A stretch of 40,672 nt of DNA from positions 1 through 40,672 of the IMG/VR virus record IMGVR_UViG_3300045988_145984, one strand, 5' to 3'. The notes below the pieces were generated by a model. The model was not told the DNA's origin. It was given only the letters and a program-made list of their open reading frames with translations, and did no database searches. The DNA is from a virus. The position numbers and the translations under genes are program-made. The first letter of the stretch is position 1. Every line of letters begins with the position of its first letter. This document shows positions 17,653 through 36,053 of this stretch, in pieces.

Positions 17653-20600
17653 ATGGCGAAAGAATCTCTATACGCTCACGCTCAAAAGGTCATGAAAAAG
17701 AAGGAGATGGACGATGCCGGCAATGCACCCCGCCCTTCTGATTCTTCACAGAGCCGCGATAGCTCCGAAGCATCTAAGGGAAGGCAATCCCTCTATTCCC
17801 ATGCACAGAAGTTCGTAACTAAGCGCGAAGAGTATAAGCCGTCGGCGGAATATCAGCGGTTGCAGCAGCGCCCCACACCGAAGCGCAGCGTCACGACATC
17901 GACGTATGAAGACGCAGCCGCACGGCTCCTTTCCGGTAATAATACTGGCAAGGCCAAGTTTGGTAATTCATGGGACAGGTACTTGGAGCTTTCCCACAAG
18001 GACACCCTTACCGCCGAAGAAAGGGCAGAGGCCAAAGCAGCGCGAAAGAATATTGAATCGGCCTATGGTGCCGCCGGCAAATATCAGCAGGATCTTCTCC
18101 TTGCTGATATCCCGCAGGAGGTCATGGACGTATACCGCGACCTGGGCCTTAAGGCTGACGCTGCAACCGGCGTTGCAATGGGCTTCTTGGATGCCCTCGG
18201 CGTGGACTGGCTATCCGATAAGGTCGCAGACGCCATGCACAGCGATTCCCCGCGTATGCAGTCCCAGCTTGCACGGGCTAAGGCCGCCCAAGGCACGGCG
18301 TTTGGCGTTGGCAATGTTGCAGGAAATTTGTATTCCATGCTCGGCATCAATCAGCTTGTCGGCGCTGGAGCAAAAGCCGTCCCCGCTCTTTCCAAGCTCC
18401 CAAAATATGCCCAGACTGCCATAAAGGGCGCGGCTACCTACGGAATAAAGGGGGCTTATTCCGGCCTCACCAATACGCAGACCAAGGAGGAATGGGACAG
18501 GCGCCAACAGCTTGCAGCAGAGTATTACGCTGAGCAGGGTATTGACTACCAGCCTATTGAGTATAGCACCTGGCAACAGGTCGGTAATATCGCCCAGTCC
18601 TTCGGCCTCGGCGCTCTTAGCGGTGCGGCTGGCAGCGTTGCAGGCGATTTTGTGGGCGACCTCGGTAAAGCTGTTCTTGTTAAACTCGGTTGGCAAAAAC
18701 CGCTTGCCGAAGTTATCCGTCAGGCTCTTGCCAGCACCGCTCACGCAGGCGCGAGCACAGCCTCCACATATTGGCTCTACCCAGAGGATATTAGGCCAAA
18801 CAAGGAAAAAATAGTTCAAGACCTTGCGCTATCCTTCCTTTTCTCTGCTGCTACGACCACTATAAGCACCATACAGGTATCGAAGCAGAACAAGGAATTC
18901 CTTAACGGCGCAATAAATAAAATGCGGAACGACTACCAGACTATTCTTAACTCAGACATGAGTAAGGAAGCACAGTTGGCAGGCATGGACGAGATTATTA
19001 AATATAACCAGACCATCCGCTCCGCACTGTCTCAAAACTACTATGCCGGGCAGCAGTCCACCATCAACGAACTTATTCGTTCCATGGATGCTATCGACGA
19101 GCAGATAAATATAATAAAAAACGGCGTTGCAGAAGGCACGGCAACGTCATCCCCTGCCTCGTCCCCGAATGGTATAAACGTTCCCAGCGGATACCTGCCC
19201 GGAGATAGTTTGCGTAAGGCAGCGGAAGAAGCCGCAGGACTGTCCCCTACCCCTCCCTCGCCCTCGGCTCCTATCGCGCCCGTAGAACCTCCTAAGGTAA
19301 GCGCGTCCGATATTATTCCTCCTGTTGTCACAGCGGAAACAAAGCCGGTTGCAACCGTCTTAAACGATGTCAACGAGCCGCCCGTTGATAATACCGAGGC
19401 TCACGACAATATCCTCGCCATCGTGGAGGATGCAGGAAAGAATAATACTCCCTATGATGTGGTGCTCAATACTGCCAACAGCAGCATAGACAACAACATT
19501 GTTACCGCCGACGAAGTACGGAGTAGATATGAGCAGGGATTGGCTGCCTATAACAAAACCACGCCTCCCGCCAAAGCTGATACCGGCGACAATAACGCCG
19601 TCACCGATATATCCGCCTTTGAAGAGGCTGGCTTTAAGCACTGGCAGAAGGACGACAAGGACAGGCTTTATATCAGCATGTCTAAGCTCGGCCTGTCCAA
19701 CGAGGTCAAAGACATCAAGGGGCGCGTGAAAGTGTGGCTGGATGTGCCCACAGGCGAGGTGCAGGCGACAAAGGACACTCCGAACTCGGTTATTGAAGCT
19801 GCTCAAAAGCTGGTTGACAGCGTACAGGGGAAGGCTGACGTTGCGGAAAATATAAGCACCGCGGAAAAACCGCCTGTTTACGGCAGCGACATTGCCCAGG
19901 CTCTTGAGCATATAAGCAGGATTAAGTACGACGGGCTGATATATTCGGTATCCGGTCAGGTCAATGGGTACTATACCAGCATTACCCGCGACGATTCCCG
20001 GGCGGATGGAATGATATCCAATGACCGTTCCACTATCTACCGCGGCGGTCCGTTTGCCACCCGCAAGGAGGCTGCTGCGGATATCGCAGGTGTTTATGAT
20101 AACAATTTTGCAAATAATACAGGCAGTTCGCCTACTCCGGCATTGCAGGCCGAAGCTGCTCTTGCTACAATGACCTTAGAGGAGCAGGGCGCAATCAGGC
20201 AGTATAAGAGCGGCAGCGATTCATACATGCTCAACGAAAAGCTGTATTCCGGCGCGGCATTGTCCGAAAACGAAAAAAAACTTGCCGACAATCTGGACAA
20301 GGCCCTCGATAAGCTGCCCAACTACAAGGGCACCACTTATAGGGTTCTGAGCTTTGACCGGCAGGGCAAAGAGGCTTACGACGCCTTTATCGCGCGGCAT
20401 GTGCCAGATATGCCTGTGAACTATGGCGCATATACCTCGTCCTCCAAAACGCTGGATGGCTATGATATCGACTGTGCCTTAAAGGTTAAGGTTGAAATTG
20501 ATGGTTTTTCCGGCAAAGATGTTTCGCAGGGCTTCGGGCTCGAAACGGAAAATGAGGTTTTATACGGAAGAACGGTTGACTACATTACCAAATCTGTAGA

Positions 20601-23600
20601 AACCACACAAGACGGCGTAACAGTTATCAGGATAAAGGAGGCCAATCTCAATGACGAAGGTATTCTCGCCGGACGAGAAAAATCAGTGGACGGCTCCGCT
20701 CAGGGCCAGAACACCCAAGTGCGGGCTGTGCAAGAGGTGGAGGGGAGCAAACGAGCAGAACAGGCCGGTGTGCGAGGCGTTCCCGAACGGGATACCCAGA
20801 GCGGTATTCAAGGAGGAAGTGGATCACTTCAAGGAGAACTATCCGGGGGACAACGGAATGCTCGGAATACCGAAGGAGAGTTAGGAGGACAAACACATGG
20901 CAGCACTCAGAAGCGTTCTGACGAAGGAGTTTATGAAGGACAAAATGCCCTTGCCCCACTACGGGGAGATGGCAGAGAGGTACTACCGGGAGTTCTGCAA
21001 ACCGAGCTACCGGTCTCTGGCAGCGAAGGGGCCGGAGCACGTTTATCAGTACTTCGAGAAGCTGGGAATGAAGGCACTCGACGAGCAGACCGAAATGATG
21101 CAGCAGGGAGTAGCCGAGGACGGAGCCTGGGAAATCGTCAAGGAGTGGCTGTTCCCGAGGGGCGAGGAGAACATGAAGTAGGGCTTGAGCAGGAAGCAAA
21201 GGCTGAAATAGAACGCACCGTGACAGAGAAGCCCAAGGGGGCCAACTTTGTCATAGGTGAAAAGCTCAACCTTCCCGCGGGTGAAAAAGCCCGTTATAAG
21301 GCTAATGTAGCCGCTATCAAAATCGTTAAAAACCTGATAGCTGAAAATCGGTATGCAACCGCAGAGGAACAGGAAGCCCTCTCCAAGTACGTTGGGTGGG
21401 GCGGCCTCTCCTCTGCGTTTGATGCAAAAAAAGAGGGCTGGTCAAAAGAGTATGGCGAGCTGCAAGCACTGCTTTCGCCAGATGAATACAAGTCCGCCCG
21501 GGCAAGCACACTCAATGCCCATTATACGAGCATAGACGTTATCCGCGCCATGTACGAGGGACTTAGACACCTGGGCTTCCAAGGCGGCAGAATGCTCGAA
21601 CCCTCCGGCGGTATCGGTCACTTCATGGGCGCTATGCCTGCCGATATGCAAGGCACGGTCAAGTCCTGGACGATGGTTGAGCTGGATGACATCACCGGTC
21701 ACATTGCAAAATACCTCTATCCTAACAACGATGTGCGTATAGAGGGCTTTGAAAAGGCAAAGATACCCAACAATTACATGGACGTCGCCATAGGCAACGT
21801 GCCTTTTGGCAACTATGCTATCACAGACAAAACCTACCCCGGCACTGTTACTTCGGCAATCCACAACTACTTCTTTGCGAAGTCGCTTGACAAGGTGCGC
21901 CCGGGCGGTCTTGTGACGTTCATAACCTCGCGGTATACGATGGACGCATACGACGACAGGGTACGTAAATACCTGATGGACAACGCCGACCTTTTGGGGG
22001 CTATCCGCCTGCCGGACACCGCTTTCAAGAGCAACGCCGGAACAGAAGTAGTCACTGACATAATAGTGCTGCGCAAAAGGGCTGCCTTCACTCCCTATAA
22101 GGGTGAAGCGTTCAGCGAAGCGAGATATACGCTTATGGGGCGCGGCGGCACCTATGTCAACGAGTACTTTGCCAATCATCCCGAAATGGTTCTTGGAACC
22201 CCGGAAATGAGCGGTTCTATGTACGGCAAGGACGGACTGACCTACAAGGCCCTCAAAGGCGACTTGAACAAGCAGATAATAAGCGCATTCAAGAATATTA
22301 CCGGTAAGATGGAGTATCCAAAGCGCCCCACCGTGGAGAAGGTCAACCGGGACGCTGCCATAGCGGAAGCGAAAGGCAAGGAAGGCTCCCTCGTCGCAAA
22401 GGGCAACAAGATATACAAAATAAACGATGGTCAGCTTGTAGAGCACAAGACTACCGAAAAGCAGGCGGCCACAACCGCGAAGATCCTCTCCATCCGCGAC
22501 ACTGCCCGCGGGCTGCTGAATATGCAGCTTCAGAGTGCGAGTGAGATGGATATAAAAGCAGCTCGCTCTAAGCTGAATAAGGCATACGACGCATTTGTCA
22601 AGCAGCATGGATTTATCAATGCGCCCGGGAACAAGCGGTTATACTCAGATGATGTTGATGCTCCTTTCATCACTTCGCTCGAAAATTACGATGCAAAGGC
22701 GAAAATCGGCCGCAAGGCTGATATCTTCTCCAAGAACACCGTCTCCCCCCGCAGGACCATTACCCACGCCGACAGCGCGATAGATGCGCTCATAGTGTCC
22801 GTCAACGAAACGGGCGGCGTGGATATTCAGCGAATTGCGGAATTGACCGGAAATAGTGTCGATGCCGTTTCTCGTGAACTGCTGGATGCGGAGCTCGTGT
22901 ATAAGAACCGTGACGGCGGTTATGAAACCGCCGAGCAGTATTTGTCCGGCAACGTAAAGGCAAAGCTGCGTGATGCAGAAGATCTTCTCCCCGCCGATAA
23001 GGATTACCAGCGCAATATTGACGCACTGAAGAAAATCATCCCGGCGGATATTCCGTATCACGATATATTCGTACAGCCCGGTTCTACTTGGATACCCCTA
23101 AGCGTGTACTCGGATTTTGTTTCTCACATGCTCAATGTGTACAACGGCGGATATAGGCCGAAATTCAAGGTTTCCTATTCCGCCTTGACGGGCGACTATA
23201 TAGTGCAGATAATCGATAGCTATGTAAAACGCTCCGTAGAAAACACAGCCACATGGGGAACCTACGACAAGTCGTTTGCAGAACTTTTCAGCGCATTGCT
23301 GAACAATCGGCGCATTGTCGTATCCCATAAGGACGCAGAAGGGCGCTCCTATGTAGACAAGGCAGCCACCATTGCCGCTCAGGAAAAGGCCGAGGCCATA
23401 AAAGCCGAGTTTCAAAACTGGATATGGCAGGATGAAGCGCGACGCGATACCCTCGCCCACCTGTACAATGAAACCTTCAACAACACCGTTACCCCTAAAT
23501 ATAACGGCGCAAACCTCACCGTAGACGGTATAAGTGCGGCCAAGCCGCTCCGAGCCCATCAAAAGGACGTGGTTCAGCGTATAATTGCCTCCGGCGGTAA

Positions 23601-26600
23601 TACGTTGATAGCACACAAGGTAGGCGCAGGCAAAACCGCGGAAATGGCGGCGGCAGCCATGAAACTGCGCCAGCTCGGTGTGGTCAAAAAGCCCATGTTC
23701 GTTGTGCCGAAGTCCGTGCTTGCACAGTGGGGGCAGGAATTCATATCCTTCTTCCCCAATGCGAAAATACTTCTCCCGGGAGAGCAGGATTTTACCGCTA
23801 AGAGGCGCCGCGAATTTATGAATAAGGTCGCAACGGGTGACTACGATGCTATCATCGTATCGCAGGAGAACTTTTCCTCCATACCAGTTTCAGCCGACAC
23901 CGAGTATCAGTTTGCCGTCCAGCAACTCACCGAGCTCGAAGCCGGCATTGAGATGGCTGTTCGCAACGGGCAGCGCAACGACCCGTCTGTAAAGCAGATG
24001 GAGAAAAAGAAAAAGCAGTTTGAAGCGAGACTCGAAAAGCTCAATTCTCTGCGTAAGGACGAGGGCAATATCTCTTTTGAAGAACTTGGCGTAGATTCCC
24101 TCTTTGTAGATGAGGCGCATTCATATAAAAACCTTTTCTACACGACCAACATGAACAACGTGTCCGGCCTCGGCAATAAGGACGGCGCGAAGCGCTCATA
24201 CGACCTGTACATGAAAGTACGATACTTACAGCAGCTAAACGGTGGCCGCGGTATCGTATTTGCCACGGCTACCCCCGTCATGAACAGCATGAGCGAAATG
24301 TATATCATGCAGAAATATCTGCAAAGTGACCTCCTTAAGCAGCGTGGCCTTGAAACATTCGACGCTTGGGCGAATATGTTCGGTGAAGTCGTCACCGTTA
24401 TGGAAATGAACCCCACCGGCAAGGGCTACCGCCAGAAGGAGAGCTTTTCCCGATTTAAGAATCTTGGTGAGCTTCAGCAGATGTTCCGCAGTTTTGCCGA
24501 CGTACTTACCGATATCCCCGGTCTTGAAATACCCAAAATAAAGGGCGGCAAACGTACCGTTATAGTCTCTCCTCCTTCGCAGTACCAGTTGGACTACATA
24601 GAACAGCTTGCCGAGCGAGCTGATAAACTGCGCGGCAGTAAAGTAGACGCAAAGGCCGACAACATGTTGAAGATTACCTCAGAAGGCCGTAAGCTGTCAT
24701 ACAGCCAGCGTATCATGGATCCGTCTCTCCCTTACGAAGAGGACGGCAAAATCATGAAGTGCATTAACAACGTATACGACATCTGGCAGCGCACAAAGAA
24801 GGACAAAATGGCTCAGCTCGTGTTCTGCGATAGCGCAACTCCAAAAGGTGATCAGCAGGCCGAAGCCGCATTATTCGCCGAAGATGCTGAGAATGTGTCC
24901 ATCTACGACGACATGAAGCGACAGCTTGTACTGCGCGGCATTCCCGCAAAGGAAATTGCCTTTATTCATGATGCCGATACCCAGGATAAAAAGAATCAGC
25001 TTTTTGATGATGTAAACGCTGGTAAAGTTCGTGTTCTCATCGGCAGCACCGGCAAGATGGGCGTCGGCATGAATGCTCAAAAGCGTCTCTACGCGCTCCA
25101 TCACCTTGACGCACCTTGGAGGCCGGGCGACATTGAACAGCGTGAGGGACGCATTCTGCGCCAAGGCAACGTCAATAAAGAGGTGGAAATATTCACCTAT
25201 GTAACCGAAAAAACCTTTGACGCCCGAATGTGGGATAATCTGGAGCGCAAAGCATCGTTCATAAACTCTATCATGAACGGAGACACAAACGCCAGGGAAG
25301 CCGAGGACGTAGGCGAAATGGTACTTTCGTTCGCAGAGATTAAATCTATCGCCTCTGGCAATCCGCTTATCATGGAGCAGTTCGAGGTGAACGCGGAGAT
25401 TGCAAAGCTCACTACGCTGAAGCGGCAACATTCAAAAGCCGTGGAGGAGGCTAAATTCCGGAAGTCTACCACCGAAGCTGCTATTGCAAAGGCTAAGAAT
25501 GCTCTGCCTAAAGCACAAAAGGATCTTGCGGCGAGAAAGGATATTAGCGGAGACAACTTTAGGATAACGGTATCCGGCGTTACTTTCACCAACAGGCAGG
25601 AAGCTGGTGACGCCATTATTTCAGCAGCACAGAATTTTGTAACCTCTGAAAGCTCAGATCAGCAGCGAGTTATCGGTAAAGTCGCAGGGTTTGACCTGCT
25701 TGTGAACCGCGACGGAGACGCAATCATCCGCGGGGAAGGCACCTACAACGCAAGCATTAAAATGGAAAATGCTGTTCGCACCACGCGGTCTATTGAATCT
25801 GCACTTCGCAGCATCGAAACGCGAGTACAAGTGCTGGAAGAAAATATTTCTACATGGCAGGATAATATTGCGAAGCTCGACTCGATAATCTCTACTCCCT
25901 TTGAACGCCAGAGTGATCTCAATAAAGCAATCGCCCGAAATAACGAAATAACAAACATTCTCAACCCCCCTGAGGCGGAGGCGGTGGTTGCTGACTATGA
26001 TGACGCAGAAACAGACACCATTCAAAGCATGTTTGGCGATTCCCCGGACGATAGCGATGTGCCACACGACAAGTGGAACACACAGCGCGTGGGGAGCAAC
26101 AGCAAAACAACCATGCGTATATCTGACATCATCGGGAAGATGCGCCACGACTTCGGCATACCTGTCGGAACTGGGCGTATGTCTCGGCGTGATGTGCTCG
26201 GGCAGTACAACACCCACGCCCACAGCATAAAAACGAGGATAGCAAACGACCTTCCCACCGTCGCACACGAGCTTGGTCATCATCTGGATAATGCATATCG
26301 CCTTACCAGCGAATTAAGCAAAGATCAGCAGGCCGAGCTTGTAGACCAGTTAAGCAGCGCGATGAAAGAAAAATATAAGCCCGGTGAGCTTAAGGCTGAG
26401 GGACTTGCGGAATTTGTGCGTAGATATATGCAAAATAAGGAGACTGCAAAGATTGATTACCCTCTGTTCTTCACGCATTTCCAAGCTGCGTTGTCTCCCG
26501 AAACGTTGGCTACGGTGGATGAATTTGCAGACGAGATAAACGCCTATTACTCTCTGGACGTGAATAGTGCTCAATCGTCTATACGTCCCATGAGCGAAGG

Positions 26601-29600
26601 GCCTAATGATTTCCGCACATTGAGTGAGAAATTCAGTGACAGTAAAGAGCGTTTTTATCAAGACTGGTTCGATTCGCTACATGCAATAAGGATGTTTGAT
26701 AAAGAGGCTGGTTCCTCGGTGTATATTGATGCAATCAATAGCGCGTACAGCGATTCCATTGCCGCCAGCGTCTTATTTACCGGCTATGTAGATGATGACG
26801 GCAGGCAAATTTCCGGTGGTTTACAGTCTGCTCTTGACGGTATAGACCTCAAAGACAAAAAGACCTATGCCGATTTCAATGAATACTTGGTAGTCCGGCA
26901 CGGCCCGGAGCGTCTGCAAGAGGGTATGCGCATATTCGCAGACGACCGAAAGAACTCTACATCGTGGATGGACACACGCCGCAACGAGCTCGAACGGCAG
27001 CACCCGGAATTCAGCGGAGCCGCAGAAAAGCTATATACATGGCAGCGAGACTTTTTGCATAATTGGGGTGTGAAATACGGCCTCGTTTCCAGGGTGAGTG
27101 CGGAAGAATGGGCTGATCGCTGGCCGAGCTATGTTCCCCTTAGCCGCGTCATGGAAAAGAGCAGATTGCGAGGTGGAACAAGGAGAAGTTTTGCAAATCA
27201 GGATAGCACCATCCGGCGCGCTCACGGTAGCGGACGCGAAATAATCAATCCCATTGAAAGCATCATCACCAATACGGTGAAGATGGTCAATGCAGCCATT
27301 AAGAACAAGGTTGCCCTTGACCTTGTTGACGCCGCGAAAAAGGAGGAGGGGCTCGGCTGGTTGGTAGAGCCCGGCACCCCGCCGATGAAGCGCCAAGTAA
27401 TCGACATGGCAGGAACTAAGCAGGCGCTTGAGAAGGGGATTCAAGAAAGCTCTATGGATGAAGATGCCAAAGAAACAGCCTATGGTATAATTGGTGAGCT
27501 CAATGACTATCTTGTGCAATTCAGCCGCGGAACAAAGGGCTTCGGCAACACAATAACTGTGCTGCGCAATGGCAAACCTGAATTCTGGAAGATAAACGAT
27601 CCTTTATTGCTGGAGTCGCTTACAAATATGTCGCCCCGTCAGGCCGGCGACTTTGCGCGAACCATAGGCACAATCAACCGGCTTATCACTAACAGCATCA
27701 CAGGATTAAACCTTGTTTGGTCGGTAGGGTCAAACACTGTACGTGACTTGGGTACGGCGTTTACATATTCTGAAAAGAGCCCCATTAAACTTGTAAAAGA
27801 GATATTCGCTTCTTACGCGCAGAACTTCCGCAAGCCTGATAAATGGTCGCCCTTCCACAAAGAGTATGTGGCCCTCGGCGGAGGACATGATTCCGCTTTT
27901 GCAACGGATAAGGATATGCCAGATCAAATTATAGGGCAAATGATGGGTGATTTCTGGAAGCACATAGGAAGAGACCCTGCAAAGATTGCCCCCCGTTTGT
28001 TCAATAACACGATAGGCGCCGGAATAGAATTTGTATCCGACATCATAGAAAGCGGCCCGCGTGAAGCAATATACGTCTTAAGCCGTAAGTCAGGACTTTC
28101 CCCCAGAGAAGCTATGTATGCTTCCCATGACATTACGGTGAACTTCAAGAGAGGAGGCATTAAGAGCAAGCAGCTCAACAGGTTTGTTCCGTTCTTCAAT
28201 GCCGGTATGCAGGGATTGGACAAAGAAGTCAGGTTCTTCACCGCCGAAGATGCCCCTCCAGAATTGAAGAAAAAGGTTATCACGGCTCGCCTTGCGCTGT
28301 ATATCGGAGCATATACCGCATTAGGCGCTTTGCAATGGCTCATAAATAGCCGCGACGAGAAATCCCGCAAATACTACGCGCAGCTTTCGACATACACCAA
28401 GAATAATTTCTGGTGCATCCCGGTATATAAGGATGGTGAGGCCACGGGCGAATTTATTACAATCCCCAAACCCCGAGAACTCGCAGCCCCGGCAAGCGCC
28501 ACGTCCGCCCTTCTCGAAAAGTACGCCAGTGGTAACGACGACGCCTTTCGTGACTTTGATGAGTACCTTACCGGCTCGTTCCTGCCAAACCTTGCAGATG
28601 ATGCGGCACAGGGCTTGATTGACCTGCTTCGCGGCGAAGCCACGCCGAAAGACGTCGGGGCGGACTTATTAGGCAACTTCGGTATAGCCGGTATAGCGGC
28701 ATACATGATGGCAAACCGCGACTTTCTTGGCAGGCCAATAGAAAGCGCTGCCTACACCGGTGAAAAGGCAACTCACTATAATGAACGTACCTCGAAGATT
28801 GCCAAGGTTGTCGGTGAAGCCTTTAATTGGAGCCCCATAATGATAGACTACTTTGGCAAAAATGTGTTTGGTGGGTTCTGGAAATTCCAGCAGGCATTAT
28901 TCCCTGTAAATGATGAGGCGCGTGATTTCTCGCTCGGCCTGAAAAATACATACTGGCGCGACAGCCAATATTCAACCGACCTTATCAACACAATGTATTC
29001 TCTCAGGGATGCTGCCAAAACCGCAAAGGATACCTACCCGGCTGATATGGACAAGGCCATTGCTTACAGCGAGAGCAATACAATGACCACGTTCTATTCG
29101 CGTTACAACAAGCTGGCTAAGGATAATCCGAACCGCAATACGCGGCAGATAGTGCTTGATATGATAAACGACTTCAACCGTTCTTTCGGCAGCGACGTAA
29201 GAAGCTACGCGCAGCAAAAGGTTGATGCAGCGGTGAGAAAGGCCGGGGACACGGAAATAATGCCCAATGTCATGCAGACCTTCATAACCGACGATAACAG
29301 CAAGCGCTTCGAACTGACCGCCGAGCAATATGTGGAGTATCAGGGCAAGTTCAATAATCTCTACTGGCAGTATGTCACCGCCGTTGCGGATCAGGGCGAG
29401 GTAGCTATACGGCAGGCGAAGAAACGAGCGAAGAATGAGGCTGACGCCTATATGCTCAAGTTGCTGGGCGGTCACTCCAAGGCCGGGGTAGCTTACGCAG
29501 CTCAAAGCAGCGCGGGTATATCAGCTTCGGACGACCTGCTGTATCAGGCCGCGTTGGATGTAGCAAGAGAGGGCGGTCTTAAAAAGCAGGAGGTATATGA

Positions 29601-29931
29601 CGTCCTTGACCGCATGAGTATTCCAGATAGCCAAAAAGCGGTGTTGTTTGACGGTACTGGAAACTACTCCGGCGCGAGCAATATCTACTACACCGCCGAT
29701 GAGCTTAACAGCTGGATTTATGAGCAGCAGCGAGAAGGACGGAAGGACGGCGATATTGCCAAGAGCATTTCCAATGTGTACAGGGAACTTTATCAGGCCG
29801 CATACGAGGTTGCCGACTATCAGAAAATGAGCGATATAGAGACAAAACTATTCGCTCTCGACCTCACTGACAAGAAAGGAAAGCCCTACTGGACACAAAA
29901 GAAATTCGATGAATGGCTCAAGCCCAAGTAA
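17653..29931 (+). CDS. Giant polyvalent (DarB-like) protein, 4,092 aa: N-terminal Gly-zipper/hydrophobic region, ART, N6-adenine DNA MTase, SNF2/DEAH helicase, HExxH metallopeptidase, and a long C-terminal region with hydrophobic segments
   Basis: Single open frame with SD gaggaggg. Domain motifs are listed as separate features. It sits where podovirus ejection/internal virion proteins are usually encoded. Confidence 0.8.
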   Translation: MAKESLYAHAQKVMKKKEMDDAGNAPRPSDSSQSRDSSEASKGRQSLYSHAQKFVTKREEYKPSAEYQRLQQRPTPKRSVTTSTYEDAAARLLSGNNTGKAKFGNSWDRYLELSHKDTLTAEERAEAKAARKNIESAYGAAGKYQQDLLLADIPQEVMDVYRDLGLKADAATGVAMGFLDALGVDWLSDKVADAMHSDSPRMQSQLARAKAAQGTAFGVGNVAGNLYSMLGINQLVGAGAKAVPALSKLPKYAQTAIKGAATYGIKGAYSGLTNTQTKEEWDRRQQLAAEYYAEQGIDYQPIEYSTWQQVGNIAQSFGLGALSGAAGSVAGDFVGDLGKAVLVKLGWQKPLAEVIRQALASTAHAGASTASTYWLYPEDIRPNKEKIVQDLALSFLFSAATTTISTIQVSKQNKEFLNGAINKMRNDYQTILNSDMSKEAQLAGMDEIIKYNQTIRSALSQNYYAGQQSTINELIRSMDAIDEQINIIKNGVAEGTATSSPASSPNGINVPSGYLPGDSLRKAAEEAAGLSPTPPSPSAPIAPVEPPKVSASDIIPPVVTAETKPVATVLNDVNEPPVDNTEAHDNILAIVEDAGKNNTPYDVVLNTANSSIDNNIVTADEVRSRYEQGLAAYNKTTPPAKADTGDNNAVTDISAFEEAGFKHWQKDDKDRLYISMSKLGLSNEVKDIKGRVKVWLDVPTGEVQATKDTPNSVIEAAQKLVDSVQGKADVAENISTAEKPPVYGSDIAQALEHISRIKYDGLIYSVSGQVNGYYTSITRDDSRADGMISNDRSTIYRGGPFATRKEAAADIAGVYDNNFANNTGSSPTPALQAEAALATMTLEEQGAIRQYKSGSDSYMLNEKLYSGAALSENEKKLADNLDKALDKLPNYKGTTYRVLSFDRQGKEAYDAFIARHVPDMPVNYGAYTSSSKTLDGYDIDCALKVKVEIDGFSGKDVSQGFGLETENEVLYGRTVDYITKSVETTQDGVTVIRIKEANLNDEGILAGREKSVDGSAQGQNTQVRAVQEVEGSKRAEQAGVRGVPERDTQSGIQGGSGSLQGELSGGQRNARNTEGELGGQTHGSTQKRSDEGVYEGQNALAPLRGDGREVLPGVLQTELPVSGSEGAGARLSVLREAGNEGTRRADRNDAAGSSRGRSLGNRQGVAVPEGRGEHEVGLEQEAKAEIERTVTEKPKGANFVIGEKLNLPAGEKARYKANVAAIKIVKNLIAENRYATAEEQEALSKYVGWGGLSSAFDAKKEGWSKEYGELQALLSPDEYKSARASTLNAHYTSIDVIRAMYEGLRHLGFQGGRMLEPSGGIGHFMGAMPADMQGTVKSWTMVELDDITGHIAKYLYPNNDVRIEGFEKAKIPNNYMDVAIGNVPFGNYAITDKTYPGTVTSAIHNYFFAKSLDKVRPGGLVTFITSRYTMDAYDDRVRKYLMDNADLLGAIRLPDTAFKSNAGTEVVTDIIVLRKRAAFTPYKGEAFSEARYTLMGRGGTYVNEYFANHPEMVLGTPEMSGSMYGKDGLTYKALKGDLNKQIISAFKNITGKMEYPKRPTVEKVNRDAAIAEAKGKEGSLVAKGNKIYKINDGQLVEHKTTEKQAATTAKILSIRDTARGLLNMQLQSASEMDIKAARSKLNKAYDAFVKQHGFINAPGNKRLYSDDVDAPFITSLENYDAKAKIGRKADIFSKNTVSPRRTITHADSAIDALIVSVNETGGVDIQRIAELTGNSVDAVSRELLDAELVYKNRDGGYETAEQYLSGNVKAKLRDAEDLLPADKDYQRNIDALKKIIPADIPYHDIFVQPGSTWIPLSVYSDFVSHMLNVYNGGYRPKFKVSYSALTGDYIVQIIDSYVKRSVENTATWGTYDKSFAELFSALLNNRRIVVSHKDAEGRSYVDKAATIAAQEKAEAIKAEFQNWIWQDEARRDTLAHLYNETFNNTVTPKYNGANLTVDGISAAKPLRAHQKDVVQRIIASGGNTLIAHKVGAGKTAEMAAAAMKLRQLGVVKKPMFVVPKSVLAQWGQEFISFFPNAKILLPGEQDFTAKRRREFMNKVATGDYDAIIVSQENFSSIPVSADTEYQFAVQQLTELEAGIEMAVRNGQRNDPSVKQMEKKKKQFEARLEKLNSLRKDEGNISFEELGVDSLFVDEAHSYKNLFYTTNMNNVSGLGNKDGAKRSYDLYMKVRYLQQLNGGRGIVFATATPVMNSMSEMYIMQKYLQSDLLKQRGLETFDAWANMFGEVVTVMEMNPTGKGYRQKESFSRFKNLGELQQMFRSFADVLTDIPGLEIPKIKGGKRTVIVSPPSQYQLDYIEQLAERADKLRGSKVDAKADNMLKITSEGRKLSYSQRIMDPSLPYEEDGKIMKCINNVYDIWQRTKKDKMAQLVFCDSATPKGDQQAEAALFAEDAENVSIYDDMKRQLVLRGIPAKEIAFIHDADTQDKKNQLFDDVNAGKVRVLIGSTGKMGVGMNAQKRLYALHHLDAPWRPGDIEQREGRILRQGNVNKEVEIFTYVTEKTFDARMWDNLERKASFINSIMNGDTNAREAEDVGEMVLSFAEIKSIASGNPLIMEQFEVNAEIAKLTTLKRQHSKAVEEAKFRKSTTEAAIAKAKNALPKAQKDLAARKDISGDNFRITVSGVTFTNRQEAGDAIISAAQNFVTSESSDQQRVIGKVAGFDLLVNRDGDAIIRGEGTYNASIKMENAVRTTRSIESALRSIETRVQVLEENISTWQDNIAKLDSIISTPFERQSDLNKAIARNNEITNILNPPEAEAVVADYDDAETDTIQSMFGDSPDDSDVPHDKWNTQRVGSNSKTTMRISDIIGKMRHDFGIPVGTGRMSRRDVLGQYNTHAHSIKTRIANDLPTVAHELGHHLDNAYRLTSELSKDQQAELVDQLSSAMKEKYKPGELKAEGLAEFVRRYMQNKETAKIDYPLFFTHFQAALSPETLATVDEFADEINAYYSLDVNSAQSSIRPMSEGPNDFRTLSEKFSDSKERFYQDWFDSLHAIRMFDKEAGSSVYIDAINSAYSDSIAASVLFTGYVDDDGRQISGGLQSALDGIDLKDKKTYADFNEYLVVRHGPERLQEGMRIFADDRKNSTSWMDTRRNELERQHPEFSGAAEKLYTWQRDFLHNWGVKYGLVSRVSAEEWADRWPSYVPLSRVMEKSRLRGGTRRSFANQDSTIRRAHGSGREIINPIESIITNTVKMVNAAIKNKVALDLVDAAKKEEGLGWLVEPGTPPMKRQVIDMAGTKQALEKGIQESSMDEDAKETAYGIIGELNDYLVQFSRGTKGFGNTITVLRNGKPEFWKINDPLLLESLTNMSPRQAGDFARTIGTINRLITNSITGLNLVWSVGSNTVRDLGTAFTYSEKSPIKLVKEIFASYAQNFRKPDKWSPFHKEYVALGGGHDSAFATDKDMPDQIIGQMMGDFWKHIGRDPAKIAPRLFNNTIGAGIEFVSDIIESGPREAIYVLSRKSGLSPREAMYASHDITVNFKRGGIKSKQLNRFVPFFNAGMQGLDKEVRFFTAEDAPPELKKKVITARLALYIGAYTALGALQWLINSRDEKSRKYYAQLSTYTKNNFWCIPVYKDGEATGEFITIPKPRELAAPASATSALLEKYASGNDDAFRDFDEYLTGSFLPNLADDAAQGLIDLLRGEATPKDVGADLLGNFGIAGIAAYMMANRDFLGRPIESAAYTGEKATHYNERTSKIAKVVGEAFNWSPIMIDYFGKNVFGGFWKFQQALFPVNDEARDFSLGLKNTYWRDSQYSTDLINTMYSLRDAAKTAKDTYPADMDKAIAYSESNTMTTFYSRYNKLAKDNPNRNTRQIVLDMINDFNRSFGSDVRSYAQQKVDAAVRKAGDTEIMPNVMQTFITDDNSKRFELTAEQYVEYQGKFNNLYWQYVTAVADQGEVAIRQAKKRAKNEADAYMLKLLGGHSKAGVAYAAQSSAGISASDDLLYQAALDVAREGGLKKQEVYDVLDRMSIPDSQKAVLFDGTGNYSGASNIYYTADELNSWIYEQQREGRKDGDIAKSISNVYRELYQAAYEVADYQKMSDIETKLFALDLTDKKGKPYWTQKKFDEWLKPK
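20176..20570 (+). other. ADP-ribosyltransferase (R-S-E class) domain within the giant ORF
   Basis: TYR(20341)VLSF, YTSSS (20431..20445) and ETENE (20542..20556), preceded by LEEQGAIRQYKSGSDSYMLNEKLYSG. This is the order and spacing seen in C3/VIP2-type ARTs. Confidence 0.7.
20651..20884 (+). CDS. Embedded shifted-frame ORF 1 (77 aa, Cys-containing) inside the giant ORF
   Basis: SD aaggagg (20634..20640) then ATG. CGLCKRW...PVCEAFPNGIPRAVFKEEVDHFKENYPGDNG reads like a folded small protein. All 6 Arg codons are AGG/AGA. Confidence 0.45.
   Translation: MTKVFSPDEKNQWTAPLRARTPKCGLCKRWRGANEQNRPVCEAFPNGIPRAVFKEEVDHFKENYPGDNGMLGIPKES
20897..21181 (+). CDS. Embedded shifted-frame ORF 2 (94 aa, helical, TnpV-like by eye) inside the giant ORF
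   Basis: TAGGAGGA, then 7 nt, then ATG; the stop of ORF 1 lies inside this SD. LPHYGEMAERYYREFCKPSYRSL...YQYFEKLGMKALDEQTEMMQQG...AWEIVKEWLFP. Confidence 0.5.
   Translation: MAALRSVLTKEFMKDKMPLPHYGEMAERYYREFCKPSYRSLAAKGPEHVYQYFEKLGMKALDEQTEMMQQGVAEDGAWEIVKEWLFPRGEENMK
21232..22080 (+). other. N6-adenine DNA methyltransferase domain within the giant ORF
   Basis: Motif I LEPSGGIGHF (21595..21624) and motif IV GNVPFG (NVPF at 21796..21807). The lead-in YVGWGGLSSAFD is typical of the methylase-helicase proteins of phages and ICEs. Confidence 0.8.
23548..25170 (+). other. SNF2/DEAD-like helicase domain within the giant ORF
   Basis: Walker A GAGKT (23623..23637), DEAH (24109..24120), and helicase-C motifs GSTGKMGVGMNAQ and QREGRILRQGN. 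Confidence 0.85.
26266..26280 (+). other. HExxH zinc-metallopeptidase motif (HELGH) within the giant ORF
   Basis: The TVAHELGHHLDN context was read directly. Confidence 0.55.
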
Positions 29932-30874: not shown

Positions 30875-31117
30875 ATGAAAATATACGACTACAACGGCAA
30901 GAAGAACATATCCGGCAAGCGAATACGTGAGTGCAGGCGCAAGGTCGGCATGACGCAGGCAGAGCTTGCGGCGCAGCTCCAGCTATCCGGCATTACCCTT
31001 GAAAATAACTGCGTGAGCAGGATTGAAAGCGGCGCAAGGTTCGTCGCCGATTATGAACTCCTCGTGCTGTCCGAGATATTCGGCGTAACCATGGAATATC
31101 TGGTTGGCAAAGAATAG
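30875..31117 (+). CDS. XRE-family HTH transcriptional regulator (Cro/CI-like)
   Basis: ISGKRIRECRRKVGMTQAELAAQLQLSGITLENNCVSRIESGARFVADYELLVLSEIFGV is a canonical HTH_3 domain. It is divergent from the YHYH operon. Confidence 0.85.
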   Translation: MKIYDYNGKKNISGKRIRECRRKVGMTQAELAAQLQLSGITLENNCVSRIESGARFVADYELLVLSEIFGVTMEYLVGKE

Positions 31118-31132
31118 TCGCCAGCATATTAG

Positions 31133-31155
31133 GCATCCTCGCGGATGCTTTTTTT
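31133..31155 (+). terminator. Rho-independent terminator GCATCC-tcgc-GGATGC followed by T7
   Basis: 6-bp stem plus a TTTTTTT run, 16 nt after the XRE stop codon. Confidence 0.75.
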
Positions 31156-31159
31156 ATTT

Positions 31160-31201
31160 TTGGTCAAAAACGGGGAGAAATGACATAAACCGGCCTGTTA
31201 C
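31160..31201 (+). promoter_or_regulatory. Conserved motif copy B: TTGGTCAAAAACGGGGAGAAAT ... CCTGTTAC upstream of the tail-fibre/DGR operon
   Basis: Matches 5621..5655. The only differences are a 1-nt indel in block 1 and the spacer length between the two blocks. Confidence 0.5.
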
Positions 31202-31226
31202 CATCGTGGAAAAAGGAGGCGATGGT

Positions 31227-32999
31227 GTGAATGAAATAATCTACCGGCTTCGCTTAGACTGCTCAAAGCCCGGAACTCAGGCAAGCATATACGTCAAAAA
31301 GGGCGACATAAAATCCCGAAAGCTCTCCATCTCCCTCTATAACGGCTCCACGCCGTATGAGGTGCCGGACGGTTGCAGCGTAGTCCTCAGGGCTAAAAAA
31401 CCCGACGCCACTATCGTATACGATGACTGCACGGTGAACGGAAACGTGGTAACTCACCTTCTCACCTCAAAGGCGGTAGAGGTCTCAGGTACGGTCAAGT
31501 GCGAACTGACGATTTATGGGCCGGATAGCGAGGTCCTGTTCTCTCCGTGGTTCAATCTCTATGTTACCGACCCGCTGTACGAAGATGACGACGTTATCTC
31601 CACCAGCGAATTCAGCGCATTAACCGCTGCCGTAAGCGCCATGACCTCCCTTGCCAACAGGTGGGGCAATCCCAGCGCGGGGGTGAAGGACGGTGAAACG
31701 CCGGGCGTAGAAGTGACAATAAGTGATAATGGCGTGGAATTCACATTTACCCTGCTGAAAGGTGACAAAGGAGAGACCGGCGAAAAAGGTGCGACTGGCG
31801 AGACCGGCGCGACGGGCGCAAAAGGTGCCGACGGCGTAAGCGTTACGAGCGTAGAGCAGACTACTACATCCACCGCAGACGGCGGGGAAAACATCGTCAC
31901 AGTCACGCTTTCCAATGGCAACACCAGCACCTTCAAGGTGAAGAACGGCTCCAAGGGCTCTAAGGGCGATACCGGCAAGACCGGTGACAAAGGAGAGACC
32001 GGCGACAAAGGTGAGACTGGCAAGACCGGCGCGACGGGCGCAAAAGGTGCCGACGGCGTAAGCGTTACGAGCGTAGAGCAAACGACTACCTCGGTGGCAG
32101 ACGGCGGGGAAAACATCGTCACAGTCACGCTCTCCAACGGTAACACCAGCACCTTCAAGGTGAAGAACGGCTCCAAAGGCTCAAAGGGCGATACCGGCAA
32201 AACCGGTGACAAAGGAGAGACCGGCGAAAAAGGTGAGACTGGAACCGGCCTCGACATCAAGGGGACATACGCAACACTCGATGCGCTGGAAGCAGCGATA
32301 ACCTCACCCGCGCAGGGCGATATGTACAACGTGGGCACAGCCGCTCCTTATAACATCTATATGTGGGACGAAACCGTTGCGCCTCATAGCTGGGTAGACC
32401 AAGGGCAGCTTCAGGGAGCTAAGGGCGAAAAAGGCGAAACTGGCGCGACGGGCGCTACCGGCAAGGATGGTAAAGACGGCTTAAACGGTACAAACGGTAA
32501 AGACGGCGTAAGCGTAACGAGCATTGAGCAGACTACCACCTCCACCGCGGACGGCGGGGAAAACATCGTCACAGTCACGCTTTCCAATGGCAACACCAGC
32601 ACCTTCAAGGTGAAGAACGGCTCCAAGGGCTCTAAGGGCGATACCGGCAAAACCGGTGACAAAGGAGAGACGGGCAGTACTGGCGCGACGGGCGCTGCCG
32701 GAGCCGACGGCGTGAGCGTTACGAGCGTAGAGCAAACGACCACTTCGGCGGCTGACGGCGGGGAAAACATCGTCACAGTCACGCTCTCCAACGGTAACAC
32801 CAGCACCTTCAAGGTGAAGAACGGCTCCAAAGGCTCAAAGGGCGATACCGGCAAAACCGGAGCGGTATTCACTCCTTCCGTATCTTCCGCCGGTGTGCTC
32901 TCCTGGAGCAACAACGGCGAATTAAGCAACCCCGCCTCCGTTGACCTTGTGGCGGCGGTAATAGCGGCTCTTCCGAGTGCAGACAGCCAAGCATATTAG
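31227..32999 (+). CDS. Tail fibre with an N-terminal BppU-like domain, collagen-like GXY tracts and four repeated beta-modules
   Basis: GTG start with SD aaaggagg 7 nt upstream. GDKGETGEKGATGETGATGAKGADG triplet repeats. The module VSVTSVEQTTTSxADGGENIVTVTLSNGNTSTFKVKNGSKGSKGDTGKTG occurs four times. Confidence 0.8.
   Translation: MNEIIYRLRLDCSKPGTQASIYVKKGDIKSRKLSISLYNGSTPYEVPDGCSVVLRAKKPDATIVYDDCTVNGNVVTHLLTSKAVEVSGTVKCELTIYGPDSEVLFSPWFNLYVTDPLYEDDDVISTSEFSALTAAVSAMTSLANRWGNPSAGVKDGETPGVEVTISDNGVEFTFTLLKGDKGETGEKGATGETGATGAKGADGVSVTSVEQTTTSTADGGENIVTVTLSNGNTSTFKVKNGSKGSKGDTGKTGDKGETGDKGETGKTGATGAKGADGVSVTSVEQTTTSVADGGENIVTVTLSNGNTSTFKVKNGSKGSKGDTGKTGDKGETGEKGETGTGLDIKGTYATLDALEAAITSPAQGDMYNVGTAAPYNIYMWDETVAPHSWVDQGQLQGAKGEKGETGATGATGKDGKDGLNGTNGKDGVSVTSIEQTTTSTADGGENIVTVTLSNGNTSTFKVKNGSKGSKGDTGKTGDKGETGSTGATGAAGADGVSVTSVEQTTTSAADGGENIVTVTLSNGNTSTFKVKNGSKGSKGDTGKTGAVFTPSVSSAGVLSWSNNGELSNPASVDLVAAVIAALPSADSQAY
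31790..32870 (+). repeat. Intragenic tandem repeats (two units of 222 bp, then two of about 204 bp) with collagen-like triplets
   Basis: gacggcgtaagcgttacgagcgtagagca... recurs starting at 31830, 32052, 32502 and 32706. Confidence 0.85.
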
Positions 33000-33007
33000 G
33001 GAGGTAA

Positions 33008-34111
33008 ATGACAATGGCACAGTGGGCTAAAACAAACACACAGCATTATGAAAATATCGCCGCGGCTATCCGCGCAAAGAACGGCGGCACGGAAACCTAC
33101 ACCCCCGCGCAGATGGCCGCAGCAATAGCGGCTATACCAAGCGGTGCGTCCATAGACGCAGTGAGCGGTTCATCTCTGCCGGCAACAGTGGTTAATGACC
33201 AAGTTTATATCATCACCTCTACTACCCCCGGTACGATATACATTGACACTGATATGCCTTCCAGCCCCGCGAGCGGCGATGCGTGGGTTGTCGTGGCAGA
33301 AGGCGGTGTTGGTGCTATCGCTTTTACGGAGGACAGCCCTTTATTCCGCGTGGGTTTCAAAGCGGTAAAGCAGTACGGCAGCAATGGTAAGTGGAGCAAC
33401 GTAGAGGCTTATCTCGGGGTGTCCGGCGCCTGGGTAAAGATAGGCGTCAGTCTACCGCCTGCCGGAACCCCCTTGAACAACTTCACGTGGGCGCAGATAG
33501 ACTATATCAGCGAAAACGGCCTTATGTCCGATTATTTCAACATAGGTGACACCAAGAACGTTACCATAGGCAGCGCAACATACGTCGTGGAGATTGTGGG
33601 CTTCTCGCACGACGACAGAGCGGACGGCAGCGGCAAGGCAGGTCTGACATTCGGCTTAAAGGACTGCCTCAATACCGCCTACCAGATGAACAGCTCCAAT
33701 ACCAACGCCGGAGGCTGGGGAAGCTGCGCTCTTCGCGCAACGCTGCGCGGCGATATATGGAATCAGCTCCCGTCCGATCTTCGCGGCGTCATCAAAGAGG
33801 TAACTAAAAAAACGTCGACTGGCAACTCAAGCAGCACCATAAATAGCATCAGCGACACCTTATTCCTATTCGCAGAAAAGGAAATTTTCGGCAGTACGCA
33901 GTACTCGGTCAACGGCGAGGGAACTCAGTATGCCAGGTTCACCACCAGCAACACCCGCATTAAAAAGCTCAACGGTTCCGCGACGTTCTGGTGGCTTCGC
34001 TCGCCTCGTTCCAGCTACGGCGACATCTTCTGTGCTGTGAACATTTCAGGTGCAGCCTACTACTACATCGCCAGCACCTCCTACGGCGTCGCCTTCGGAT
34101 TCTGCGTTTAA
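33008..34111 (+). CDS. DGR variable protein 2 (cis target), probable receptor-binding protein
   Basis: SD gggaggt. The C-terminal ATFWWLRSPRSSYGDIFCAVNISGAAYYYIASTSYGVAFGFCV is encoded by VR2. It lies directly after the tail fibre gene and before avd. Confidence 0.9.
   Translation: MTMAQWAKTNTQHYENIAAAIRAKNGGTETYTPAQMAAAIAAIPSGASIDAVSGSSLPATVVNDQVYIITSTTPGTIYIDTDMPSSPASGDAWVVVAEGGVGAIAFTEDSPLFRVGFKAVKQYGSNGKWSNVEAYLGVSGAWVKIGVSLPPAGTPLNNFTWAQIDYISENGLMSDYFNIGDTKNVTIGSATYVVEIVGFSHDDRADGSGKAGLTFGLKDCLNTAYQMNSSNTNAGGWGSCALRATLRGDIWNQLPSDLRGVIKEVTKKTSTGNSSSTINSISDTLFLFAEKEIFGSTQYSVNGEGTQYARFTTSNTRIKKLNGSATFWWLRSPRSSYGDIFCAVNISGAAYYYIASTSYGVAFGFCV
33975..34105 (+). repeat. DGR variable repeat VR2
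   Basis: 131 bp colinear with TR 34591..34721. There are 13 substitutions, all at TR adenines. Confidence 0.92.
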
Positions 34112-34925: not shown

Positions 34926-36053
34926 ATGACAAGTAACGAACGCCGTGAGGCGCGTTATCAGAGACGCAAGCAGTACCGCGAAGCGCAACGCAGAAAACGT
35001 ATAGCCGCCTGCGGTTCTCTGGATGAAATATTCAGCTTCGAGCACCTATACAAATCCTATAAGCTGTGCTGCTCCGGCGTGGGCTGGAAAAGCAGCGTAC
35101 AGGCGTATAAGGCCAATGCCCTTGCCAACGTATACAAAGCCAGGGCTGCCGTGCTTAATGGAACGTACAAAAGCCGCGGATTCGTCGAATTTGATATCTA
35201 CGAGCGCGGCAAGCCCAGGCATATACGCAGCGTCCATATAACGGAGCGCGTCATACAGCGCTGTCTCTGTGACTATGCGCTGGTCCCGCTGCTCAGCTCC
35301 CGTTTCATCTACGACAACGGTGCATCTCTCAAGGATAAGGGTATAGACTTTAGCCTTGACCGACTCAACCGCCATTTCCGCGAGGCCGCGAAAATGACAA
35401 ATCCCTGCTATGTGCTCAGCTTTGACTTCTCAAAGTTTTTTGATAACGCCAGCCATACGGCGGTATTTGCGGAATATGAAAAATCGCTGCCCCCATGGGT
35501 TACGGCATGGGCGAAATACTTTGTAGGGCAGTTCGGCGACCATGGGCTTGGTTTGGGCAGCCAGGTATCGCAAATATCCGCTCTGGCCTTACCCAACAGC
35601 CTCGACCACATGATAAAAGAACAGCTCGGTATCAGGCTGTATGCGCGGTATATGGATGACGGCTATCTGATTCACTCAGACAAGGAATACCTGCGGTATT
35701 GCCTGCAAGAGATAAAAGCAAAGTGTAACGAGCTGGGGATGAGTACCAACCAGAAGAAAACACAAATAAGTAGGCTGGAAGGCATGACATTTCTGAAAAC
35801 CAGATTTTTCATGTCCAACACAGGCAAAGTAATACGACTTCTGAACCATAAGTCCATAACCCGTATGCGCCGCAAGCTGAGGATATTCAGAGTATGGGTA
35901 AACGAGGGGCACATGACCGCGGCAGAGGCGGTTAACTCTTATCAGTCCTGGCGTGGTCACGCAATGCGTTGCAACACCCGCACAGTTATGGCGAAAATGG
36001 ACGGTTACTTCAACAAGTTATTCAAGATGGAGGTAGGGCAATGTTCAAAGTAA
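34926..36053 (+). CDS. DGR reverse transcriptase
   Basis: YMDD box (35649..35660) and the DGR-typical LGSQVSQ motif of the [ILV]GxxxSQ type (35553..35573). 375 aa. The TR lies 204 nt upstream. Confidence 0.92.
   Translation: MTSNERREARYQRRKQYREAQRRKRIAACGSLDEIFSFEHLYKSYKLCCSGVGWKSSVQAYKANALANVYKARAAVLNGTYKSRGFVEFDIYERGKPRHIRSVHITERVIQRCLCDYALVPLLSSRFIYDNGASLKDKGIDFSLDRLNRHFREAAKMTNPCYVLSFDFSKFFDNASHTAVFAEYEKSLPPWVTAWAKYFVGQFGDHGLGLGSQVSQISALALPNSLDHMIKEQLGIRLYARYMDDGYLIHSDKEYLRYCLQEIKAKCNELGMSTNQKKTQISRLEGMTFLKTRFFMSNTGKVIRLLNHKSITRMRRKLRIFRVWVNEGHMTAAEAVNSYQSWRGHAMRCNTRTVMAKMDGYFNKLFKMEVGQCSK

Follow-up and report, generated by a model that had tools for sequence, protein, structure and literature searches.

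How can two small genes lie wholly inside the coding sequence of a giant phage protein, on the same strand and in another frame, and what keeps both readings intact? This question is raised by a virus sequence of 40,672 nucleotides (nt; IMG/VR record IMGVR_UViG_3300045988_145984, positions 1 to 40,672), which is referred to below, at its full length, as the window. An open reading frame (ORF) of 4092 amino acids (aa) at 17653..29931 on its plus strand, which was taken from the ORF list and sits among structural-module genes, encodes a polyvalent protein. Between the ADP-ribosyltransferase and adenine methylase domains of this protein, the frame shifted by +1 contains two consecutive small ORFs, named here ORF1 and ORF2. 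We consider it likely that the segment at 20650-21183 is dual-coding and is maintained by selection in both frames. Related loci are designated by L numbers and proteins by P numbers.

Two nested genes under purifying selection

ORF1 (20651..20884, plus strand) begins with ATG, encodes 77 aa and lies in frame +1 of the host ORF, (20651-17653) mod 3 being 1. Its Shine-Dalgarno (SD) site, AAGGAGG, is located at 20635..20641 on the same strand, 9 nt before the ATG (spacer CCAATCTCA), and is included in the last codons of the ADP-ribosyltransferase domain (K-E-A). The stop codon of ORF1 overlaps the SD site of ORF2 within TAGGAGGA (20882..20889, plus strand), whose first three bases are the TAG at 20882-20884, and this motif is separated by 7 nt (CAAACAC) from the ATG of ORF2 at 20897. 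ORF2 (20897..21181, plus strand) encodes 94 aa in the same +1 frame as ORF1. An earlier reading of the window (the original prediction) had proposed these features, and the coordinates, lengths, +1 frame, TAG inside the SD motif and 7-nt gap were all confirmed on the sequence; the spacer of ORF1, given there as 10 nt, had to be corrected. Both small ORFs share their nucleotides with the 17653..29931 ORF in a different frame and are thus same-strand embedded overlaps. Within this 12.3-kb ORF, they are the only out-of-frame ORFs of at least 45 aa that start with ATG, have an SD site and give a protein-like translation.

The interval 20650-21183 contains no terminator, no excess of promoters and no Rfam family (E<=1). 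An intron, RNA element or internal terminator was rejected, as neither an Rfam match nor a terminator was found in the interval. Insertion of a self-splicing intron or intein was also rejected: Rfam gave no match at E<=1, and the small ORFs lie out of frame within an uninterrupted host frame. An antisense ORF at 20648..21199 (minus strand, 183 aa, TTG start), which had been pointed out as open, is indeed present. It matches no family and only 59 aa of it are still open in L006, so that it is not conserved; we judge it to be a by-product of the T-poor plus strand rather than a gene.

An exhaustive phmmer search of ORF1 against 1.84 billion representative proteins returned 238 clusters at E<=1e-3. 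Nearly all of them are stand-alone proteins of 60-90 aa that align over ORF1 residues 20-75 and share the motif C-x2-C...C-x-AFP-x-GIP...DH...PGDNG. The columns that are invariant in an alignment of 46 sequences (C24, C27, C41, G47 and H59) are all present in ORF1. Since invariant Cys and His residues suggest a Cys3-His metal site, ORF1 is probably a metal-binding protein of this type. No Pfam or NCBIfam model matched it, and phrog_33375 and HiPIP-like models gave only weak, noise-level hits. The AlphaFold2 model of ORF1 has a mean predicted local distance difference test (pLDDT) score of 80, with means of 85-93 for ten-residue blocks from residue 21 on; it had no match in PDB at E<=0.001.

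Stand-alone copies of ORF1 were detected in two independent metagenomes. P0005, encoded on L008, is an intact copy of 77 aa (87% identical), and the copy on L001 is frameshifted by a deletion of 4-5 nt; in both loci, an AT-rich region and GGAGG are found upstream. As a side observation, a piece of about 500 bp in these loci (L001 1-1140, L008 1-730), consisting of the stand-alone ORF1 homologue and polyvalent-gene-like sequence, is bordered on one side by the last, degenerate repeat (GTCGCTCCCCCTCGTGGGGAGCGTGGATTGAAAC) of a CRISPR array resembling type I-C and on the other by an additional partial repeat, a spacer and a repeat. On the opposite strand, this piece is adjoined by a fragment resembling a polyvalent protein (L001 966..2354).

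We also considered whether ORF1 might be an immunity protein of the ADP-ribosyltransferase domain, which it follows in the window and in L011. This was not supported, as ORF1 follows an LPD3 domain in L006 and another sequence in L026.

Homologues of ORF2 with 94 aa were found at 98, 85 and 74% identity, and the family comprises P0001-P0003 and P0154-P0171; a profile search added a distant group of 89-aa proteins, which is joined to it via intermediates. The 74% copy (L002) is a stand-alone gene that lies between unrelated flanks, preceded by a GGAGG of its own and followed by a hairpin-plus-T terminator. P0158 (61% identical) is encoded on the chromosome of a bacterium of 62% guanine-cytosine (GC) content, with serS on one side and a transglutaminase gene on the other; this protein is indexed in 69 blocks of the contig collection, and chromosomal copies are present on L012-L017. 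The AlphaFold2 model of ORF2 contains five helices (pLDDT 90, predicted template modeling score 0.79). The impression that both small ORFs look like folded proteins is thus borne out by their models.

No match to the ORF2 model was found in PDB or BFVD at E<=0.001, and nothing in the curated libraries (Pfam, PHROGs, NCBIfam) exceeded the threshold for its sequence. The model did align with BFVD entry Q8W6J4_2, a part of a viral protein of more than 1000 aa, with a probability of 0.99, a TM-score of 0.68 and an E-value of 0.27. From this structural comparison, large phage proteins may also contain an ORF2-like fold as a domain in frame.

ORF2 had been likened to TnpV, a small protein of Firmicutes transposons. 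The two are similar in size and helical character, and a weak profile match extends over ORF2 residues 16-81. The score, however, is below the gathering cut-off of PF14198 (14.9 bits, E 0.026, cut-off 27); of 22 family members, no more than 2 gave a match (E ~0.02), and there is no NCBIfam match. The TnpV assignment was therefore dropped.

Substitutions between colinear copies were counted by small-ORF codon position and evaluated by chi-square test. For ORF2, the window and L003, in both of which the gene is nested, differ at 14, 8 and 30 sites in positions 1, 2 and 3 (p 6e-4), and the window and L002 at 16, 17 and 40 (p 5e-4). The corresponding counts for ORF1 are 9, 3 and 19 against L008 (p 0.002) and 11, 13 and 22 against L006 (p 0.11). 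The nested ORF1 copies of L006 and L007 differ at 0, 0 and 5 sites, too few for a test; all of these differences (5/5) are silent in ORF1 and all (5/5) alter a host-frame residue. In the 89-aa group, L011 and L018 differ at 17, 10 and 26 sites (p 0.026). In most pairs, the least variable position is small-ORF position 2, which is host-frame position 3. If the host frame were constrained, its third position would vary most, and the opposite is seen. In addition, all pairs of distinct sequences share more amino acids in the small frame than in the host frame (e.g., identities of 0.85 vs 0.62). These substitution patterns show that both small frames are under purifying selection. ORF1 and ORF2 are genuine genes.

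The same data bear on the possibility that the small ORFs are relics, that is, unexpressed fossils of captured genes within a segment where only the linker matters. Some observations would fit such fossils: the L001 copy carries the frameshift mentioned above, and L026, which has very low coverage (1.1x), lacks the ATG of ORF1. Relics would be expected to lose frame integrity, and here starts, SD sites, stops and invariant residues are conserved, substitutions concentrate at synonymous positions of the small ORFs and host-frame residues change freely. We regard fossil genes as a quite improbable explanation.

Nested modules in other polyvalent genes

At least five further polyvalent-gene contexts, which differ in their flanking domains, have members of the two families nested in the +1 frame behind an SD site, with the host frame open. 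The layout of the window itself is present in L004, L005 and L027, which are independent assemblies with 96-99% identity. L003 and L010 have only ORF2, located directly before the methylase module, and lack the ADP-ribosyltransferase domain and ORF1. In L029 (CAVIAA010000023.1, a contig of an Acutalibacteraceae metagenome-assembled genome), only ORF2 is found, as a nested copy with 97% identity. Comparison of L029 with the window places a recombination breakpoint in the last ~20 nt of ORF1, and the binning of this contig hints at an Acutalibacteraceae host clade; the phage probably infects a bacterium of the Acutalibacteraceae/Oscillospirales.

More diverged combinations were also observed. 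L024 has an ORF2 homologue behind a different upstream domain, and L018-L020 contain an 89-aa ORF2 relative directly before the methylase module. In L011, whose methylase is 63% identical, the ADP-ribosyltransferase domain lies between an 89-aa relative, located before it, and a distant ORF1-like gene, located after it. In L006 and L007, an ORF1 homologue follows an LPD3 domain within the gene of a 2144-aa protein that has no methylase, and L023, from a low-GC phage, carries an ORF2 relative in an ORF of 1883+ aa. Judged by these contexts, nested modules are not confined to one gene; the comparison shows that they recur and are shuffled among polyvalent genes.

Two scans set the scope of this comparison. 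Metagenome, genome and viral collections were scanned with the ORF2 family, confirmation of hits depending on the sequence listed first in the alignment; this yielded near-identical or already-seen relatives (L021/L022, L027-L029) and one new nested copy, L023, from the viral collection. The ORF1-family alignment was too diverse for a locus scan. In a second scan, about 46 kb of giant ORFs (from the window, L006, L010, L011 and L023) were searched for out-of-frame ORFs of at least 45 aa that start with ATG and have an SD-like motif. Only the nested genes, all in +1, and one nonsense-looking ORF in +2 were obtained.

A further observation was made at L003 2-163, where another protein-like ORF, the third and unrelated to the other two, ends (...LAEISQVLKRYTKIHNVTLAEMAYYPNGEQVLKPEMFQEDED*) in the +1 frame upstream of the nested ORF2 homologue and the host frame is of low complexity. 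Other gene families may thus be nested in the same way.

The initiation signals accompany the nested genes. An SD site and an ATG precede every nested copy examined, at the canonical spacing of 7-10 nt. The ORF1 homologue in L006 is preceded by the same AAGGAGG as in the window, the ORF1-like gene in L011 by GGAGGAGG, and the ORF2 homologues in L003 and L002 by AGGAGG. Nested copies down to ~30% identity keep their start codon, SD site, stop position and family-invariant residues.

SD sites inside coding sequences can also have another role, as internal SD sequences stimulate frameshifting in prfB and dnaX. By analogy with this precedent, the SD sites of the nested ORFs might stimulate a +1 shift that gives truncated fusions such as ADP-ribosyltransferase plus ORF1, and the position of the first SD site, among the final codons for the ADP-ribosyltransferase domain, would suit such recoding. 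However, a TAA at 20631-20633 closes the +1 frame just before this site, which leaves ~17 nt with no slippery or stop-codon site. In all copies, the ATG lies at the canonical 7-10 nt, as for initiation, and stand-alone copies start at the same ATG. Recoding is thus very improbable.

The frame relationship might also be false, produced by an indel in assembly or sequencing, given that the window is probably a metagenome assembly and that some related contigs have very low coverage (1.1x for L026 and 2.2x for L025). The same relationship is seen in the independent assemblies L004, L005 and L027 and is shared by the diverged L003, L006, L010, L011, L023, L024 and L029, which leaves the probability of such an artefact close to nil.

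The host frame over the overlap and its origin

Over 20650..21183 (plus strand), the host frame encodes a linker of 178 residues rich in G, R, E, S and Q, including GVPERDTQSGIQGGSGSLQGELSGGQR. These five residues make up 57% of the linker and 29% of the rest of the giant protein, and hydrophobic residues 16% and 30%, respectively, in agreement with the low complexity noted earlier for this frame. The segment has no Pfam, PHROG or NCBIfam match above threshold, and from its composition it is presumably disordered. The strand is T-poor, as had also been noticed: T accounts for 14.5% of the bases in 20651-21181. At third codon positions, T is found in 5.6% of the codons of the nested ORFs and in 20.8% of those of the window genes.

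We then asked how many stop codons the host frame should contain. When ORF1 and ORF2 were resampled synonymously with the codon usage of the window, a mean of 9.1 host-frame stops was obtained and none of 20000 trials gave zero stops (0/20000, P<5e-5); none is observed. Shuffling of synonymous codons within ORF1 and ORF2 gave P = 0.022 for the absence of a host-frame stop. The same probability is 0.002 for L006, 0.0015 for L010 and 0.0001 for L023, a phage of 38% GC in which 6.6 stops would be expected.

A more specific signal was found at individual sites. A small-ORF third position that precedes a codon starting with AA, AG or GA was defined as dangerous, as a T there creates a host-frame stop. 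In seven nested ORFs, T occurs at 0/123 dangerous sites and at 37/253 safe sites; the corresponding values for ordinary window genes are 25% and 27.5%. L023 is a telling case: T is present at 37% of third positions in its host ORF and at 33% of the safe sites of its nested gene, and at 0/17 of the dangerous sites (p 0.009). Read together with the codon-position counts, these frequencies show that the host frame is kept open by selection, without constraint at the amino-acid level.

The alternative that bears most directly on these results is an accidental fusion, in which an operon of an ADP-ribosyltransferase gene, two small genes and a methylase-helicase gene happens to be open throughout and the 4092-aa ORF has no selected function. 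The low T content of the strand would favor it, and several further points weigh both for it and against dual coding. Stand-alone copies in L002, L008 and L012 are also poor in third-position T and open in the alternative frame, and such openness is expected by chance in a chromosome of 62% GC (P = 0.23). Because of this, selection probably does not account for all of the openness, some of it having come from a GC-rich donor. Moreover, L025 (positions 1-800; 2.2x coverage) has one host-frame stop (AVPQ*EPDG), between the two halves, inside an ORF2-family gene nested before the methylase module; this may be a sequencing error or may reflect a non-obligatory fusion, i.e., a natural un-fused state. 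Other reservations concern the data themselves. The SD site in L010 is weak (GGGGGG), all relatives are metagenomic, and loci were classed as nested after their host frame had been seen to be open. In addition, the compared lineages are related and pooled p-values overstate independence. With one representative per diverged lineage, T occupies 0/105 dangerous sites vs 41/206 elsewhere (p 1.5e-8).

Against an accidental fusion stand the 9.1 stops expected with the codon usage of the phage, none of which is seen, and the specific depletion of third-position T at stop-creating sites. The frame stays open at protein divergences of 15-70% and in no fewer than six contexts, one of them the 38% GC phage (P = 1e-4). 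Furthermore, no host-frame ATG with an SD site that could restart the methylase half is found after ORF2, the next candidate start being a GTG near 21220 that lacks an SD site. We consider an accidental fusion improbable. The original prediction had left open whether the arrangement is a captured cassette read through as a linker (dual coding or overprinting), a case of internal initiation that gives separate small proteins, or a fusion by chance lack of a stop codon. The first is favored by the stand-alone homologues, the purifying selection on the small frames and a host frame that is unconstrained but stop-free; the last was rejected in view of the recurrence of nesting with an open frame in diverged relatives and in different domain contexts. 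Small ORFs without homologues or frame-specific constraint next to a conserved linker, or an assembly error, would have spoken against the prediction. Neither was found: the data show the reverse, and L004, L005, L027 and L029 reproduce the structure.

How might dual coding have arisen and how would it work? In our proposal, two pre-existing small genes would have been situated between the ADP-ribosyltransferase and methylase-helicase modules of a virion-associated polyvalent gene. Ribosomes starting at 17653 would read these genes one base out of register, giving a stop-free, G/R/E/S-rich linker that would tie the flanking modules into one polypeptide of 4092 aa and about 450 kDa. Other ribosomes would start at the two internal SD and ATG sites and produce the proteins of 77 and 94 aa. 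Judging from the conserved initiation signals, the small proteins are probably made by such internal initiation, which is compatible with dual coding. Initiation at ORF2 would probably be coupled to termination of ORF1, because the stop codon of ORF1 lies in the SD site of ORF2.

The phase of the overlap offers a simple route to an open linker. In the genetic code, any pair of codons NNT and NNC specifies the same residue. In the +1 phase, the T of each host-frame stop (T|AA, T|AG, T|GA) falls at a third position of the small gene, so all host stops can be removed and the small proteins still keep every residue. With the other phase, this T would be at a second position, where its removal would alter the encoded residue.

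With respect to the order of events, we infer that the small genes are ancestral and that the linker frame is newer and overprinted on them, since the small genes have many stand-alone relatives and relatives of the linker are found only via the shared nucleotides. A tendency toward disorder in the newer of two overlapping frames is a general finding, with which this order would agree. Our guess is that the small proteins are accessory factors needed alongside the giant protein.

A broader hypothesis, which we put forward tentatively and hold to be somewhat less probable than its converse, is that out-of-frame read-through of resident small genes is a general route by which polyvalent genes grow. 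Neighboring large genes would be fused into one deliverable polypeptide with ready-made disordered linkers, and the nested genes would still be expressed from their internal starts. If this is true, G/R/E/S-rich linkers of giant proteins would often be shadows of nested genes that gene callers miss, and the nested proteins would be dedicated partners of the flanking modules, such as chaperones, packaging adaptors or antidotes. The nested genes would be read in the -1 register, the only one in which all stops can be purged by synonymous NNT-to-NNC changes.

The polyvalent host gene and known systems

The giant protein encoded at 17653..29931 contains, in order, an ADP-ribosyltransferase domain, the linker, an N6-adenine methylase, an SNF2-type helicase and LPD38. 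The flanking ADP-ribosyltransferase and methylase domains had been recognized before, and both assignments hold. The former (20170..20643, plus strand) was identified by homology to a domain of L011 (40% identity, E 2e-31), which itself passes Pfam PF03496 (E 1.2e-11), and to the database protein P0173 (96% identical), which has PF03496. The Eco57I-type adenine methylase core (21757..21996, plus strand; aa 1369-1448) matches PF07669 with E 8.5e-5 and 23.2 bits, just under the Pfam cut-off of 25.3 bits. The methylase module starts near 21208, at the motif KPKGANFVIG, and its N-terminal stretch is kept in L010, L011, L018-L020, L024 and L025. Further Pfam matches in the giant protein are ResIII/SNF2 (aa 1965-2160), Helicase_C (aa 2429-2505) and LPD38 (aa 3574-3750), all above their cut-offs. 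With LPD38, SNF2/ResIII and Helicase_C, a sub-threshold Eco57I-like methylase, an ADP-ribosyltransferase by homology and a phage structural context, the host gene is a polyvalent protein as defined by Iyer et al. 2017 (PMC5512222).

The window is a genome segment of a tailed phage, with genes for the terminase (6213-7721), portal (7736-9697) and major head protein (11156-12424) as well as an internal virion protein and tail fibers. A blastn search of the phage collection returned only distant methylase matches, and no close relative was present among the annotated phages. Two other features of the window were observed. One is a diversity-generating retroelement, whose template lies at 34591-34721 and whose variable copy lies at 33975-34105, the 3' end of the ORF at 33008..34111. 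This 131-nt repeat pair has 13 mismatches, each of which is an A in the template and a T, C or G in the variable copy, and the reverse transcriptase gene is located at 34926..36053 (phrog_1423). The other is a tail-fiber ORF (31104..32999) that holds four direct repeats of ~275 nt (31758-32908), 73-90% identical to the reference copy.

How does the nested arrangement compare with known systems? In polyvalent proteins as described (PMC5512222), giant multi-domain ORFs with LPD38, methylase, SNF2 helicase and ADP-ribosyltransferase domains are likewise found in the structural module. The concept does not include out-of-frame genes nested in inter-domain linkers: the words overlap, linker and TnpV are absent from the paper, and 'frame', which occurs once, concerns neighboring small ORFs rather than nested ones. 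Our literature searches gave no earlier report of genes nested in polyvalent proteins, nor any useful information on what TnpV does.

DarB, a virion antirestriction protein of phage P1, is similar in that a methylase-helicase module belongs to a very large protein whose gene lies among the structural genes of the phage, and a short nucleotide match (76 nt) was detected to a 'DarB-like antirestriction' gene of Ralstonia phage Eline. DarB is not known to contain nested genes.

Closer parallels to the overlap itself come from phage lambda, with its embedded spanin genes Rz/Rz1, and from phiX174 (B within A, E within D, and K). There, too, a shifted frame (+1 for Rz1) of the same strand holds the embedded gene, which has its own ribosome-binding site, and both frames are functional. 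ORF1 and ORF2 are likewise fully contained, out of frame, in a longer gene of the same strand. In those systems, however, the embedded frame is taken as the newer one and the outer gene is folded over the overlap, whereas here the embedded genes, with hundreds of stand-alone homologues, appear to be the older ones. The outer frame would be the newcomer, a low-complexity linker whose sole detectable constraint is the absence of stops.

Overprinting is well known in viruses, where frames that arise de novo tend to encode disordered protein (PMC8227390, PMC3494269). Our case is alike in that one DNA stretch carries two frames, of which the younger is compositionally biased and probably disordered. 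Overprinting classically yields a new independent protein; here it would yield a connector that fuses two large modules across still-functional genes, and the nested modules are shuffled between host genes.

The arrangement has several implications. It suggests a route by which giant polyvalent proteins of phages and conjugative elements may accrete modules without deleting the genes in between, and the +1 rule, under which host stops are silently removable, predicts where more cases lie. Two widespread small-protein families, one of them apparently metal-binding, are unannotated inside polyvalent phage genes, as gene callers give only the giant ORF on long contigs and the small proteins surfaced on short fragments or as stand-alone genes. 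Since either frame can take stops that are silent or nearly silent in the other, the locus would also be a clean system for the study of dual coding and of internal initiation on a very long mRNA. Compared with the systems above, what is new here is the polarity of the overlap, in which an apparently newer linker frame surrounds older genes, the proposed module-connecting role of that frame and the recurrence of the arrangement across polyvalent genes.

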